A program made the position numbers and the translations under genes. The notes beneath the pieces were generated by a model. That model had not been told where the DNA came from. It did not search any database and saw only the letters and a list, made by a program, of their open reading frames with translations. From a virus, in UHGV virus genome UHGV-0269045: DNA of 7,179 nt; one strand, 5' to 3'. How positions within the stretch are numbered: the first letter of the stretch is position 1; each line of letters begins with the position of its first letter. Shown one piece after another: positions 1 through 6,746 of the stretch.

Positions 1-3
1 AGC

Positions 4-168
4 ATGGCAAAGCCGATCATCACGCTCAATGGCCTAAAAATCGTCATTATGTTGGGAATGCTGGTCATTATTCTCTGCGGTATCCGTTTTGCCGCCGAGA
101 TCATCGTGCCGTTTATTCTCGCATTATTTATTGCTGTTATATATAACTTATTTCATATAACACATTGA
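4..168 (+). pseudogene. tqsA: Truncated 5' fragment of host AI-2 exporter gene tqsA (ydgG); homology ends near nt 141, then 8 unrelated codons and a TGA
   Basis: ATG at 4; translation [46 protein letters not shown] matches my recollection of the TqsA N-terminus for about 46 residues, then ...YNLFHITH stop (TGA 166-168). Sequence downstream is AT-rich and non-coding. Identification is from memory, not a search. Confidence 0.55.
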
Positions 169-347
169 TTTAATTAAATAATTTTCACCACAAAAAGTAC
201 CAAAAATCGCAAAATGACTACACCAGTGACTACACCGTTCGGTGCACTGTATGAAACAATGTGGAACAAATAGACACAAGAAATATACAGGCGGATCATC
301 TTTCCAGGGGGAAGCGCACCAATTCATGAGGGGCGTTAATGTCGATA

Positions 348-359
348 TGGGGATCCCCA
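348..359. repeat. Perfect 12-bp palindrome TGGGGATCCCCA, sharing the motif GATATGGGGATC with the hairpin at 635-662
   Basis: Read directly: tcgatatggggatccccacc; the 12-mer is its own reverse complement. Confidence 0.7.
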
Positions 360-515
360 CCTACCGGAATTTTTTTCCGGTTAAACGTTAATCAGGCTGG
401 TGGGCTTTACCTGTTCGGTAGGTGTTATGATTATCGTAATACCCGTTAAAGGGGCCGAATACATCACCGGATTTAGGGGATGTTCCCTGCCTCCTCAAAT
501 TGAGGATTGTGGAAG

Positions 516-583
516 AATCAATGGGTTAGTCTTACTTTCCCGACATACCCCAATGGGGGTTTTCGAAATAATCAATGGGTTAG
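516..583. repeat. Two identical 14-bp direct repeats AATCAATGGGTTAG (516-529 and 570-583) with a third CAATGGG core between them (552-558)
   Basis: Read directly; 54-bp periodicity; candidate arm-type recombinase binding sites. Confidence 0.6.
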
Positions 584-634
584 GCCATAGTGCAATTTTG
601 CACTCTGGAACAATTCCAACCAGTTACCGCCGTA

Positions 635-662
635 TCCCGATATGGGGATCACCATATCGGGA
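635..662. repeat. 11-bp inverted repeat TCCCGATATGG / CCATATCGGGA with a 6-nt spacer (GGATCA), 16 nt past the capsid-gene stop
   Basis: Read directly; no U-tract follows on either strand, so it is more likely a protein-binding palindrome than an intrinsic terminator. Confidence 0.6.
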
Positions 663-677
663 TTGATGCCGGAAAAA

Positions 678-1601
678 TCAGCTTTTCGCCAGAACGGTGA
701 CGGCCTTATCGAGTTTTTGCCATCCGCAATAGGTGATTGCCCTGAACGCTGTAGCGTCATTCTGGAAAAGGCTAACCGCCCCTGATTCGGTTTTTATTAC
801 CGCCTCATCAGTTGGGGTTATAACCGTGGCTTCAACGTTAATAATCAGCTTTTGAGCGTCTATCAGCATCATGCGATCAGCCTGTTCGCTCACAATTACC
901 GGTATTCTCAAAAGCTCTATCTGCCAGAACTCAGCATCAGTAAGCTGTAAGGCGTTTTCTACGGGCAAGATTAGCGACGACGTTGCAAGCGTGTTACCGT
1001 TCGCTATGTGCTTTTTGAAAAGCTCTATGAAGTTTTCGGCCTCATCAGCACCATTAAGCACGCCCTCAGGGGATACGCCAGCCACCTCCTGATCACTGGA
1101 AAGAAATTTTTCATCTATTTCTTTCACCGATTCCGATGTGATCAAGTCTCTGATCGCTGAATTGGTGCCGGGGGTGCTAAATTTGATTAGCTCGTTATTC
1201 AGCATCACAATAGCGCCAAGTTTGCACAGTTTTAGCGCGCTTTCGTTTACTTCTCCCTCTTTGACAGGGATTTCTTCGGCTTCTTTAAGCCATTTACTAC
1301 CCTTGCCTGATATTGACTGCAATTTTGCTCCAAACGGAAGATTTAGCGCGCTGCTGATTAGCTTGCCAGGTACAGACTGCGAAAAAATATACTCGCCAAG
1401 CTCTCTTACTATCGGCTCTGCCACCAGCGACGGCATGTTATCCGTGTTCATTCCTGCTACTACGGATTTTTCAAGAAATAACGATACTGCCGGATCATTT
1501 CTTTTCGTCATCTCTATAGCGTCAGCATGGCTAAATTTACACGATGCCAGCACGCTGGCGGCGCGAACTGCTGACACGCCTTTCATGTTTTTACAGATCA
1601 T
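678..1601 (-). CDS. HK97-fold major capsid protein homolog (Phage_capsid-like), short form (307 aa) without an obvious N-terminal scaffold/delta domain
   Basis: ATG at 1601 preceded by AGGAGGAGG about 8 nt upstream. The C-terminal region (ILPVENALQLTDAEFWQIELLRIPVIVSEQADRMMLIDAQKLIINVEATVITPTDEAVIKTESGAVSLFQNDATAFRAITYCGW) resembles the conserved HK97-family pattern (PADW..IELL ... GLPVVVT ... LVGDF ... RTIRAEER). Family call is by eye. Confidence 0.55.
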   Translation of the reverse strand: MICKNMKGVSAVRAASVLASCKFSHADAIEMTKRNDPAVSLFLEKSVVAGMNTDNMPSLVAEPIVRELGEYIFSQSVPGKLISSALNLPFGAKLQSISGKGSKWLKEAEEIPVKEGEVNESALKLCKLGAIVMLNNELIKFSTPGTNSAIRDLITSESVKEIDEKFLSSDQEVAGVSPEGVLNGADEAENFIELFKKHIANGNTLATSSLILPVENALQLTDAEFWQIELLRIPVIVSEQADRMMLIDAQKLIINVEATVITPTDEAVIKTESGAVSLFQNDATAFRAITYCGWQKLDKAVTVLAKS

Positions 1602-1763: not shown

Positions 1764-2252
1764 TCAGTGTTTTAAGTCTGTTGGTGGCTTAGGGATGGGG
1801 AACCGATTTGAGTAGACACTAGCGGCATTGAGTTTTTTAACCTCTTTTTTCCCAATGCTGCCGATCTTGCGGTGGGTGAACTGGGCCAGCTTAAACGCGG
1901 CATCTAAAGCCAGTTTTGGATCTGTGTCCATGTTGTCAATCAGTATCCTGCCCATTGCTTTGATGGGGTCGGGTAGGCCGTTATCCATCATCTCAATGGT
2001 GTTAATTGATGCCCGTTCCGGTGTAACTTTTTCGGTAACTTTCTTTGTAACTTTTTTCGGTTTTGTAACCTGAAAAGTTACATCAGAAGTTACAGCCTTA
2101 AGATACTTTTTCACCTCAGGATCATTGGATAGCTGCCAGCCTTTAACCCTTGCGGTCTTTTCGCTGTATCCCGCATGTATAGCGGCTTCCGTGGGATTTG
2201 CGCCCCTTGATAACGCATCAGCAAACCGCTTTTTTTTGGTCGTTAATGCCAT
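1764..2252 (-). CDS. terS: Terminase small subunit (Terminase_2 / PICI-type TerS), 162 aa, with internal KKVT repeats
   Basis: Start chosen at the internal ATG (2252) with GAGG 8 nt upstream. N-terminus MALTTKKKRFADALSRGANPTEAAIHAGYSEKTARVKGWQLSNDPEVKKYL matches the canonical Terminase_2 N-terminal HTH signature (..KQ.RF...Y...N.T.AA..AGYSEKTA...G..LL..P.V). The track ORF extends to 2387 but that extension has non-protein-like composition. Confidence 0.8.
   Translation of the reverse strand: MALTTKKKRFADALSRGANPTEAAIHAGYSEKTARVKGWQLSNDPEVKKYLKAVTSDVTFQVTKPKKVTKKVTEKVTPERASINTIEMMDNGLPDPIKAMGRILIDNMDTDPKLALDAAFKLAQFTHRKIGSIGKKEVKKLNAASVYSNRFPIPKPPTDLKH
2023..2093. repeat. Cluster of six GTAAC/GTTAC pentamers inside terS (four direct, two inverted), with two more GTAAC-TTTT copies just upstream of terS at 2276-2292
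   Basis: GTAAC at 2023, 2035, 2047, 2065; GTTAC at 2077, 2089; GTAAC at 2276, 2288. Eight copies in about 270 bp against an expectation of well under one. Confidence 0.6.
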
Positions 2253-2370
2253 GCAAAAACCTCGTTTTGAGGGGGTGTAACTTTTCGTGTAACTTTTTTG
2301 AAAAGCAAAATTTTCTACGAATGAGACGGGGGGCGGTGTCCAGGGCGATCGACTTTCCGGCCGGAACACT

Positions 2371-3146: not shown

Positions 3147-3191
3147 TTTTATTTTTACCCTCGTGTTTAAAAAGTTTTAGGTTGTGGTGCA

Positions 3192-3420
3192 CCTCCTCTA
3201 CCTCTCTACCTAATCATCTTTCATGTCAGTAATGGCGCGGCTTTCAGATGGGTAGAGGGCTTTCGTGGCCCTCTACCCATCCTCTACCCGCCCCTCACAA
3301 ACGATCTTAATCATGGTAGAAGAGGTAGAGAGGTTTTATTAGCCTTCTACCTAGCCCTCTACCCACTTATCATGTTGAATAATATGCGTTTATTTCATCC
3401 AGGTAGATGGGGTAGAGGGC
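3192..3420. repeat. Iteron array (about 11 copies of CTCTACC / GGTAGAG in both orientations), putative replication origin bound by the adjacent primase/helicase
   Basis: Heptamer copies at about 3196, 3204, 3251, 3271, 3283, 3315, 3324, 3345, 3357, 3402, 3411; includes a perfect 11-bp inverted repeat GGGTAGAGGGC (3250-3260) / GCCCTCTACCC (3268-3278); begins 12 nt after the primase stop; no ORF. Confidence 0.7.
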
Positions 3421-3432
3421 TTTTACAAAAAA

Positions 3433-5181
3433 TTATAAAAACGCGTCACAATCATCAGTTGTAATTGCGTTGGTCTGCGTTACTCCCTTAACTCTCCGCG
3501 TAATATATTCATGCCCGTAAACTTTCGCCGCTGGCTTCATGGCCTTGCTGAACTCAGCCACGTTTAGCGGTTTGCTCCTGCCTGCGTATGCCATAAACGC
3601 CAGATAGACGCGGTAAAGGCTGTTCCTGGTCGTATACTTCACTGAATCACCACCGCCCCCCATCATCAGGCCGCGCGCTTCCTCCAGAAAATTCAGGAAC
3701 TGGCAAAACTCAATAACCGGATCCGTCTGTTGCTTTATCGCCAGTGCTTCATCACCGTCGCGCTGTTCCAGTAATAAAGCCCGTGCCTTTTCAGGGTCGG
3801 CAAAATTAGCCAGCAAGCGACGGATAATTACGGGGATTTCAGCCGCGACCTTCTCCGGCAAATCCTTGTCTTTTTCGTCCTCCCTTACAATGTTGTCGAA
3901 CCGGAAAATCACCCGACGGCGTGACACACCTCCGGCCCGCTCGGTGAATATCATCGGGTTATTGTTGGTAGCCAGCACCACCGCCCTGATTACCGCCGTA
4001 AAACGCTTCTCATATTTCGGGTTTATTTCCACGGGGTCGCCGCCCGTGATTTTCTTGATGCCCGTTCCTTCGCCTGTATATTTCGGCTGGTCAGCCAGGA
4101 CGATAAGACGACTCCCGACAACCTGCGCACGTCCACCAGCATCATCAAGTGAGGTCATTTCAGCGCTTACCGTGTTCTGTTTCCCTGCCAGAAGGCTGGC
4201 TATGTGCGTGAATGTACTTTTACCGCTACCGCCCTCTCCGGTGGCCTCAATAAACATCTGCCAGTCGTACCGGTTCGCCATAATCATGTACAGCGCGGCA
4301 CATATACGCATCATCTTTCGCGGGTCTTTTCCGGCTGCGTGCTCAAGCCATTTATGAAAGTTTGGCGCGTTGTCGCGAATGTTCTCCCCTGGTGCTGGTG
4401 GCGTGTACTCAATGCCGTTGTGCGTGGTGATCCAGTTCTCCGGCGTGTGCGGGGAAAATTCCCCCGCTTTCAGGTCAAGCACACCATTGGCGAACGGCAG
4501 CAAATCGCCTGACGGCTCCCCCATTGGTTCGGCAATAACTTTTAACGCTTCCACGGCGTTATTGATTACGCGCTTGCTGAAAGTGGCCCTGTGCTCTGAA
4601 TAGATCACCACCATTTCGCGGCTCAGCTCCATTGTGCTGACCGGACACCATACCCCGCCGCGCCATACGTGAACTATTTCACTTTCAGGATGTACGCAAA
4701 CGCCATCAAATCGACCAGCAAGCAGCTGGGCGCGCTCACTGTCTGCCATTTGTGCCAGTTGCGTATTTTTCTGCTCCGGCATGGTAAGCCCTGCGGCAAT
4801 ATTTTCACGCTCAGCATTCAGATAGCGCCGCCAGTTTTCACACTTCTGGGCGTGCATTCCTTCGGGGTAAAAATTTGTGTCCTGAATATCTGCTGCCGCC
4901 AGCTTCTGACCAATCTTTTTGGTCTCCACCAAGTCCAGTTCTCCTGCCTGGTACAGCCTTACGCGTTTTTTTCCATCAGGAACAATTTGCAGTGCATCAA
5001 GTTCGGCAAGCTGATTTGGCCCAAGCCACACAGGAGGCACATTATCGCCGGATGCGGGGCCGTCCTGCTCCTGCCACTGTTTTGCATGTGCCCACGCATC
5101 ACTACCCGCGAAAATAATCACCTCTGTGTCTTTGTGTTTTATTCCGCGTGGCTGTTTTTTTACGTTCGGTGCCAGTTTCAT
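3433..5181 (-). CDS. Replicative primase/helicase (P4 alpha-like / PICI Pri-Rep type): N-terminal primase-like region plus SF3-type P-loop NTPase
   Basis: 582 aa; Walker A GEGGSGKST around residue 320; N-terminal VIIFAGSDAW ... RVRLYQAGE resembles a toprim-like primase region; ATG overlaps the upstream gene's stop in an ATGA arrangement; iterons directly downstream. Confidence 0.85.
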   Translation of the reverse strand: MKLAPNVKKQPRGIKHKDTEVIIFAGSDAWAHAKQWQEQDGPASGDNVPPVWLGPNQLAELDALQIVPDGKKRVRLYQAGELDLVETKKIGQKLAAADIQDTNFYPEGMHAQKCENWRRYLNAERENIAAGLTMPEQKNTQLAQMADSERAQLLAGRFDGVCVHPESEIVHVWRGGVWCPVSTMELSREMVVIYSEHRATFSKRVINNAVEALKVIAEPMGEPSGDLLPFANGVLDLKAGEFSPHTPENWITTHNGIEYTPPAPGENIRDNAPNFHKWLEHAAGKDPRKMMRICAALYMIMANRYDWQMFIEATGEGGSGKSTFTHIASLLAGKQNTVSAEMTSLDDAGGRAQVVGSRLIVLADQPKYTGEGTGIKKITGGDPVEINPKYEKRFTAVIRAVVLATNNNPMIFTERAGGVSRRRVIFRFDNIVREDEKDKDLPEKVAAEIPVIIRRLLANFADPEKARALLLEQRDGDEALAIKQQTDPVIEFCQFLNFLEEARGLMMGGGGDSVKYTTRNSLYRVYLAFMAYAGRSKPLNVAEFSKAMKPAAKVYGHEYITRRVKGVTQTNAITTDDCDAFL

Positions 5182-6097: not shown

Positions 6098-6746
6098 CCC
6101 CCTGACGAATACGGGCGACAAAAATAAGATGTGCGTGCGGCAGCTGTGCGCGTGCTTCGCACTCAGTGGCAGCGGTAACGGTGAATATTGCAATGCTGTC
6201 TGTCAGGCACTGCATAAAGCGCCAGACAAAGTAAGGGCGTGCGGATACAGCCATGTGAAAGGCTCCCAGATGAATTTTAAGGAGTCTCGCTACTACGCTG
6301 TCAAACATGGTGGCGAGACGTAACAGGGTTGACAGACTGGTCATCTGGAAACCAGCGAGCACAAAGGCTCCCCCGTTACGCCCCGCCATAATGCGGGTAT
6401 GGGTAGGTTTACGGACACAAAAAAACCGCTTATCGGATGTGGGCGGCTGTCCGCCAGATGTATTCAGGCTGTCAAACCCGGTCGCCATGTGGGCGACGGG
6501 GGAAGCATACAGCCCCGTGATAATTTTTTGCAAGCGGTTTTTACGCATGATGTGACCCCTGACGAATACGAGCGGCAAATACAGCAACACAACCTGACGG
6601 GCAACGGCTACGCGCTTCGCGTTCCGTCCAGGCGGTTACGTGGATGATTTGAGATTCTCCGGCACTCAGTGCCAGAAAACGCCACACAAAGGCCGTTTGT
6701 GTGTACAAGGTGTGGTATATGATTTACGGCAACCATAACGGCTCCT
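6098..6746. repeat. Repeat-rich noncoding leader / regulatory region containing two diverged paralogous segments (about 6098-6266 and 6555-6745) that begin with an identical 15-mer
   Basis: CCCCTGACGAATACG at 6099-6113 and 6556-6570; further shared motifs GCACTCAGTG(G/C)CAG (6159-6172, 6662-6675), CTTCGC, CGGT(A/T)ACG, ACAAAGG and a terminal GGCTCC (6261, 6366, 6740). ORFs on both strands here have non-protein-like composition. Confidence 0.6.

Follow-up and report, generated by a model that had tools for sequence, protein, structure and literature searches.

[quoted passage not shown] The closest described systems for the locus studied here are lambda cosB, in which gpNu1 binds the R3, R2 and R1 sites, and the Rpp-type PICIs of E. 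coli, e.g. EcCICFT073 (PMC6739421, PMC6092414). In Rpp PICIs, cosN is shared with the helper phage and cosB is private to the satellite, as has been shown experimentally (PMC6739421). Phages of the HK97 type use cos packaging and require an HNH protein (PMC11331095; bioRxiv 10.1101/2022.09.08.507074), and the HK97 TerS site lies at +15 to +29 after the cut, beside an A-tract, a position that fits the first bases of the HK97 record (PMC11331095). As for Gram-negative PICIs, a 2018 survey only notes a terS homologue in some of them (PMC6092414).

The window, that is, the whole stretch of 7,179 nucleotides of UHGV virus genome UHGV-0269045 analyzed here, carries on its - strand a satellite-like gene set that includes a primase, several small ORFs, terS, a 53-aa ORF and a capsid-family gene:

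3433-5181, - strand: D5_N/DUF5906 primase (Pfam)
1764-2252, - strand: terS, small terminase of 162 aa (Pfam PF03592, phrog_641)
1591-1752, - strand: 53-aa ORF directly after terS (phrog_641 positions 89-125, E=3.5e-7)
678-1601, - strand: capsid-family protein of 307 aa, without a protease domain (Pfam PF05065; phrog_617 and phrog_10, C-terminal parts only)

As marks of the PICI type we took small size, genes for an integrase, a regulator and a primase or replicase, an origin after the latter, and a short packaging module, with tail and lysis genes lacking. Judged by its genes, the window belongs to a satellite of this type from E. coli. In strain F8704-2 (L001), a 9-kb island at tRNA-Pro has a packaging module 99.2% identical over 1500-2700, and also carries an integrase, an HTH regulator, Icd-like genes and a primase. 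The element is present in 220 of 5426 complete E. coli genomes, and 30 sampled from these 220 include strains of O157:H7, O111, O103:H2 and O121. The closest phage TerS proteins, at 46% identity, are those of Stx1a-, Stx2c- and some Stx2a-converting phages (e.g. BP-4795 and 2851).

Other features of the element deserve brief mention. The near-identical packaging module of F8704-2 ends its island, with the tRNA-Pro beside yejO/yejM; the left flank of the window (1-680) differs from that island and has a short ORF at 4-168. Related islands may sit at different chromosomal sites. No tRNA genes were found in the window. The non-coding DNA that adjoins the 3′ end of the primase gene contains short tandem repeats with units of 8 and 12 bp (3191-3211, 3315-3334, 3340-3363), at a place where an iteron-bearing replication origin would be expected in a PICI. 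Rfam detects a C4 antisense RNA (72.6 bits) and its a1/b1 target sites (46.8 bits) at 6306-6393 and 6461-6510, both on the - strand. C4 antisense RNA and a1/b1 sites constitute the RNA-based immunity of P1/P7/P4-type elements. The F8704-2 island has its Icd-like genes between primase and integrase, on the same side of the primase as C4 in the window.

Two of the listed genes flank the question of packaging. The 53-aa ORF at 1591-1752 resembles only the oligomerization core of the TerS family, and BLASTP of this ORF against the window TerS gave no match, the relationship being by profile match alone. ORFs of 50-51 aa occupy the equivalent position in the satellite-like loci L087 and L088, and not in phages. 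The ORF may belong to the packaging module, and its product may act as a decoy or interference protein against the helper TerS, a Ppi-like role. The phage homologue of the capsid-family protein is a 645-aa Peptidase_S78-capsid fusion (BP-4795, L084), of which only the C-terminal capsid part is matched; the satellite protein is probably Ccm-like and may redirect capsid size.

The initial annotation, made by reading the letters of the window, had named the gene at 1764-2252 terS. Its product indeed matches Terminase_2 (PF03592) over residues 3-57 (42.4 bits with a cut-off of 26.1, E=1.4e-10), and phrog_641 over the full length (E=1.5e-43). An N-terminal HTH domain for DNA binding occupies aa 3-57, the linker at aa 57-84 is disordered, and aa 96-146 form the helical core. 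An AlphaFold2 model has helices at 5-56 and 96-146. Because residues 57-84 are modeled with pLDDT<50 and without secondary structure, the stretch that the repeats encode is placed in a flexible linker, and the low-complexity linker proposed for it earlier is predicted to be disordered. Sequence matches of TerS to the SF6 TerS DNA-binding domain (4zc3, 2cmp) are weak. A sequence search of the PDB with TerS found no close solved TerS and no Rpp match, by which the possibility that the window TerS is an Rpp was ruled out. Identity to BP-4795 TerS is at a similar level in the DNA-binding domain and in the core, which gives no ground for seeing the C-terminal part as the better conserved one.

Eight copies of GTAAC or its complement GTTAC had been reported within about 270 bp, and they are found at 2023-2293, within 275 bp. 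GTAAC occurs on the + strand at 2023, 2035, 2047, 2065, 2277 and 2289 and on the - strand at 2077 and 2089, with a spacing of mostly 12 bp and one 18-bp gap. Reading the flanks of the pentamers gives a full motif of ~10 bp, AAAAGTTACA, present six times on the terS strand and twice inverted. The copies form two groups:

2022-2094, - strand: distal cluster of six copies within the gene (pentamer and motif counts, Tandem Repeats Finder)
2275-2297, - strand: proximal non-coding pair, AAAAAGTTACAC and GAAAAGTTACAC, 12 bp apart (motif search, Tandem Repeats Finder)

The distal cluster, whose six copies lie within the terS coding sequence as had been stated, consists of four AAAGTTACA on the terS strand (GTAAC at 2023, 2035, 2047 and 2065) and two inverted copies (2077, 2089). 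The peptide first given for it, VTKPKKVTKKVTEKVT, is right for the last four copies; all six encode AVTSDVTFQVTKPKKVTKKVTEKVT. The proximal pair corresponds to two further direct repeats already remarked upon upstream of terS, and both are non-coding; they lie 29-41 bp before the terS ATG and ~28-52 bp past the conserved core described below.

The repeat cluster is real and far above chance. The whole window holds 20 copies of the pentamer versus 10.5 expected (2 of 200 shuffles reach 20), and 8 of the 20 are concentrated in the 275 bp of the cluster (3.8% of the window), where the background set by the remaining 12 would give ~0.5 copies (Poisson P ~4e-8). With at most one mismatch, GTAACTTTT has 8 matches in the window versus 2.2 expected, a number reached in none of 200 shuffles, and 7 of the 8 fall in 2023-2297. 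All six exact AGTTACA/TGTAACT 7-mers of the window are inside the cluster, where Tandem Repeats Finder recognizes two stretches, 2023-2061 and 2275-2297, as built of 12-bp units. Copy number also differs among relatives, which have 1, 2 or 3 KVT units in 12-bp steps, with TerS lengths of 154 aa (P0003), 158 aa (P0004) and 162 aa (window). This variation is consistent with slippage of 12-bp units, a behavior already suggested for the repeats.

Repeats within a coding sequence can be read as DNA or as peptide, and five lineages with TerS identities of 54-65% were compared in this respect: the window, an E. coli satellite (L082), a Hafnia phage (L084), a Salmonella locus (L086) and an assembly from a public sequencing run (L088). 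Every Val-Thr pair in their linkers is encoded by GTWAC (21 of 21). The N-terminal linker pairs are GTA ACT after T, i.e. the inverted motif, in 8 of 8 cases, and the C-terminal pairs are GTT ACA/ACC, plus one GTA ACA; Val-Thr codon choice tracks the orientation of the motif. In columns where the five lineages agree in the amino acid, 4-fold sites have a codon identity of ~0.84 in the motif versus ~0.38 elsewhere. Non-coding AAAAGTTACAC precedes terS in the five lineages, by 32-36 bp in four and by 29 and 41 bp in the window, and in alignments the first upstream copy has a conserved offset in L082, L084, L086 and L088. Orientation-dependent codons, 4-fold-site conservation and conserved non-coding copies argue for selection at the DNA level. 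By these comparisons, the motif is an element conserved as DNA and not a by-product of the peptide repeat.

Upstream of terS, the order in all the loci compared is a G7-10 run, ~40 bp, a core and an A-tract. In the window, these are:

2371-2380, - strand: G10 run, read as C on the + strand; the predicted cut follows after 42 nt
2322-2341, - strand: conserved core GGACACCGCCCCCCGTCTCA, candidate cos cleavage region, common to phages and satellites of all TerS classes
2307-2318, - strand: A-rich tract from core to first repeat, GTAGAAAATTTT here and CAGAGAAAAAAT in relatives (alignments)

The consensus of the core across loci is GGACACCGC(C/G)CCCC(C/G)TCTCA. In HK97, whose record starts and ends at the mapped cohesive ends, a G9 run lies 42 nt before the right cohesive end, with GACCGCCGCC at the end, ...GACCGCCGCCAAA. 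Counting 42 nt from the G-run of the window leads inside GACACCGCCCCC/CGTCTCA (slash at the counted position), and on this analogy with HK97, as opposed to a mapped end, the cut is predicted near 2328. The likeness to the HK97 cos region comprises the G-run, its distance to the end and a short GC-rich stretch, with weak alignment beyond. An alignment of HK97 GTTGACA with the first repeat was considered and set aside, the mapped HK97 TerS site being elsewhere. In five E. coli copies that differ by <=5% over 1.2 kb, the repeats and the 20-bp core are identical, and the stretch from the G-run to the repeats shows two single-base differences, just upstream of and just after the core. The G-run itself is of variable length, 6 to 10 G, in E. 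coli copies that are nearly the same in other respects (window, L001, L094, L095, L096).

The phage records that match the core are all prophage-derived (94 of 94), with the core internal. Two IMG/VR records, one starting at the G-run (L101) and one ending at the core (L181), were considered as physical ends and are put down to the assembly having broken at a homopolymer or at the edge of a repeat. Pairing of the G-run with the C-run in a hairpin is no more stable than in shuffles (z=-0.68), and Rfam gives no match in 2000-2400.

Gene context points in the direction of HK97 as well. The phage relatives (Hafnia phage L084, BP-4795 type) have the order HNH, intergenic region, TerS, TerL, protease-capsid fusion and portal. 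An HNH gene stands beside terS in L084, L085, BP-4795 and the satellite L082; it is absent from the window, which has a 53-aa ORF upstream instead. Among solved structures, BP-4795 TerL matches only HK97 TerL 6Z6D (E=1.1e-9), and the TerL of L084 belongs to PF03354/PF20441. The window has no TerL.

Scanning IMG/VR with the core recovered at least 120 loci. Among the listed loci with at least 450 bp of downstream sequence, terS of the window's family follows the core in all but two (L224, L247), which have a divergent terS. In the loci listed, each class of TerS recognition helix has its own repeat motif, starting 28-30 bp past the core:

AKTARVKGSQL (BP-4795 type), at least 47 unique loci: five GTTAAC and no GTTACA after the core; in the gene, GTAAAC (phase 1, end of the DNA-binding domain) and GTTTAC (Val-Tyr)
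EKSARSKGSQL, at least 22 unique loci: GTAAAC in most, plus GTTAAC, after the core; GTTTAC/GTAAAC as linker codons (Val-Tyr, Val-Asn)
EKTARSQGSRL, at least 9 unique loci: mostly two GTTAAC after the core; one GTTAAC in the linker in most (Val-Asn)
EKTARVKGWQL (window type), at least 3 unique loci: two GTTACA after the core; five GTTACA in the linker (Val-Thr)
AGYEEKTASQQGSKL (L224, L247), at least 2 unique loci: AAAAGTTAAAG twice, 12 bp apart, after the core; copies in the gene at +158, +185 and +207

Over at least about 80 unique listed loci, the motif tracks the recognition-helix class of TerS, as a correlation, and the offset of the repeats from the core is conserved across four TerS classes among the loci listed. 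Copies in the gene follow the upstream non-coding motif regardless of reading frame, and the linker peptide shifts accordingly: of the GTTAAAG copies within the gene of L224 and L247, one is read in frame 2 (EKLKA), another in frame 0 (KVKT), and a third is inverted. As a point against the proposal made below, the terS gene of the BP-4795 class has no GTTAAC copies inside it, just the related forms GTTTAC/GTAAAC. The only gene always beside the motif is terS, the upstream gene being HNH (L082, L084) or a small coiled-coil ORF (window, L086, L088). IMG taxon 2923307698 has both a window-type satellite and a BP-4795-type prophage, in which the 20-bp core is identical and the repeats are different.

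Some loci stand apart. The layout of L224 and L247 mirrors that of the window, with a different motif and a common core. The E. coli satellite L082/L083 (TerS identity 62%) has an HNH-like gene upstream of terS, and its GTWAC copies, counted from about -200 to +230 relative to terS, number 6 upstream and 4 in the gene, with the full AGTTACA/TGTAACT 7-mer in 5 and 1 of these, respectively. It also has one helper-type GTTAAC on each side of the terS start (-128, +158), and this element could be recognized by two TerS classes. A profile scan of genome contigs with the TerS alignment gave mostly distant relatives with little similarity beyond the HTH, the useful ones being L002, L004 and L005.

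We propose, with a probability of roughly 0.6, that the AAAAGTTACA repeats are cosB-like sites for the satellite's own TerS, beside a cut site that is shared with the helper. The repeats would be recognition sites for the satellite TerS, equivalent to the R sites of lambda cosB, and would form two clusters with ~200 bp between them, both on the side of the cut that is packaged: the pair ~30-55 bp and the six copies ~235-305 bp past it. The helper-type phages would be BP-4795-like Stx1a/Stx2c-converting prophages, with which the cut core and G-run are shared and whose repeats are GTTAAC. On satellite concatemers, the private repeats would be occupied by an oligomer of the satellite TerS, which would recruit the HK97-like TerL and the HNH nuclease; both would have to come from the helper, as the window has a gene for neither. 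Cutting would then take place at the shared core, giving satellite DNA precedence over phage DNA in packaging. Repetition of Lys-Val-Thr in the peptide would follow from GTTACA sites placed in a linker that tolerates change, and slippage of 12-bp units would alter site number and linker length together. We infer TerS binding, cut position, helper identity and preferential packaging from the comparisons above.

There are other possible explanations for the repeats. Repeats near terS need not be TerS sites, since the isolated DNA-binding domain of SF6, the reference for Terminase_2, binds pac weakly and has no preference for direct repeats (PMC4737164). One hypothesis is regulatory: the packaging operon would be controlled through the repeats as operator or activator sites, either by TerS itself (autoregulation) or by another protein. 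HTH proteins often bind such repeats, and the upstream pair is directly before the terS ribosome-binding site. However, a promoter scan of 1700-2800 found no sigma-70-like site (terminator-like matches were at chance level), and the motif follows the TerS class whichever gene is upstream. Its offset is fixed to the core (28-30 bp) while its distance to terS varies by ~190 bp between classes in the loci listed, and a second conserved cluster 200 bp into the gene would be untypical of an operator. We regard this explanation as unlikely, although TerS autoregulation could exist alongside packaging recognition.

The initial annotation had favored a pac site. In such a model, headful packaging would begin from a single imprecise cut made by the helper TerL close to repeats that the satellite TerS binds, on the pattern of pac-type SaPIs and SPP1. 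In its favor, the window TerS shares the family Terminase_2 with SPP1/SF6 G1P and SaPI TerS; the pac of SPP1 spans the promoter and start of terS and has direct repeats (PMC4737164), and SaPI TerS recognizes the SaPI pac site (bioRxiv 10.1101/2022.09.08.507074). Against this, phages with a like TerS and motif have HNH directly upstream and an HK97-like TerL, and the HNH arrangement is tied to HNH-requiring cos packaging (PMC11331095; bioRxiv 10.1101/2022.09.08.507074). The 20-bp core and G-run are moreover constant across TerS classes with differing repeats, like the HK97 cos end, and a pac model does not call for such a shared core. The pac label is not supported by the HNH-TerS-TerL order of the relatives, their HK97-like TerL and a core that resembles the HK97 cos end, and we consider a headful pac quite unlikely. 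From gene context and sequence likeness, packaging most likely occurs at a cos site shared with the Shiga-toxin helper phages, and cos packaging was among the outcomes that the initial annotation had set down as contrary to its proposal. As in cosB, the short repeats lie on the packaged side of the predicted cut and beside terS, two past the core and six in terS, and they are better called cosB-like sites because of the gene context of relatives and the resemblance of the core to the HK97 cos end.

That a Lys-Val-Thr linker is selected and the pentamers are its codon-level consequence, with the upstream pair arising by chance or local duplication, is barely tenable even with KVT units kept in the protein alignment within a low-complexity linker, given non-coding copies preserved in five lineages, synonymous codons that depend on motif orientation, synonymous sites better conserved in the motif than outside, an identical DNA motif in other frames and other peptides (L224/L247; L102), and VT becoming VN, VY or VK in other classes as the upstream motif predicts; the initial annotation had named this very outcome as one that would undo its proposal, and it is rejected on the codon, 4-fold-site and non-coding-copy evidence.

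Returning to the cosB-like reading, the range of loci suggests a wider scheme that we put forward tentatively, and with less confidence. Enterobacterial HNH-type cos phages and their satellites might form a modular specificity system, in which one universal core is combined with at least four interchangeable pairs of TerS DNA-binding domain and motif (GTTACA, GTTAAC, GTTTAC/GTAAAC, GTTAAAG), some of each recognition site is carried in the linker codons of terS, and STEC satellites hijack the TerL and HNH of Stx phages by means of a private pair. If so, TerS and its target would be inherited as one unit via the linker codons, and the packaging hijack would be a strategy so far undescribed for Gram-negative PICIs. 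Packaging specificity would then follow a rule at the sequence level, in which the cut site is common while each motif is private and paired with the TerS domain that fits it. Such a rule would cover many prophages of enterobacteria, among them those of EHEC that are Stx1a- or Stx2c-converting, along with their parasitic satellites. The model would predict satellite-phage mobilization pairings, and would explain how a satellite with terS only could outcompete its helper for the packaging motor. The DNA site would be embedded in, and would shape, the coding sequence of its presumed binding protein. In the literature searched, there appears to be no description of the family-wide architecture of core, repeats and TerS, of sites embedded in terS linker codons, or of a Gram-negative PICI-type satellite that has its own TerS together with a helper-type HNH/cos core.

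Compared with the known systems, the locus combines features of several. Like Rpp PICIs, the satellite shares the putative cut-site sequence of the helper and differs in the presumed recognition repeats, by which packaging would be redirected; unlike them, it encodes a complete TerS, whereas Rpp rebuilds the DNA-binding dimer of the helper TerS. Unlike lambda, TerS is of Terminase_2 and not Nu1, the system is probably of HK97/HNH type, and half of the sites lie inside terS. HK97 resembles the family in the order HNH, putative cos, terS and terL of the phage relatives, in the G-run 42 nt before the actual or predicted end, and in a GC-rich candidate cut region with an A-tract on the packaged side and presumed TerS recognition a few tens of bp past the cut. 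It differs in that its TerS is of another family and a single 15-bp site is enough for binding (PMC11331095), whereas multiple class-specific repeats in two clusters are present here, and the cos sequences are only weakly alike past the G-run. With the pac of SPP1/SF6 (pacL, pacC, pacR, box repeats), the locus shares the Pfam family of TerS and direct repeats both upstream and in the 5′ part of terS, and, as in SaPIs, a satellite-encoded TerS would give packaging specificity; unlike what is proposed for the window, the TerS/pac systems of SPP1/SF6 and SaPIs are headful and without HNH. Cos SaPIs (SaPIbov5) and cf-PICIs likewise exploit cos phages of the HNH type (PMC5052747; bioRxiv 10.1101/2022.09.08.507074). 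SaPIbov5 carries a capsid-protein homologue (Ccm) and uses the cos site of its helper, with no complete TerS and only a 3′ terS remnant (PMC5052747). The cf-PICIs carry hnh-terS-terL within a whole head and packaging set, and the window element, with its TerS, mini TerS-core ORF and capsid homologue, is intermediate.
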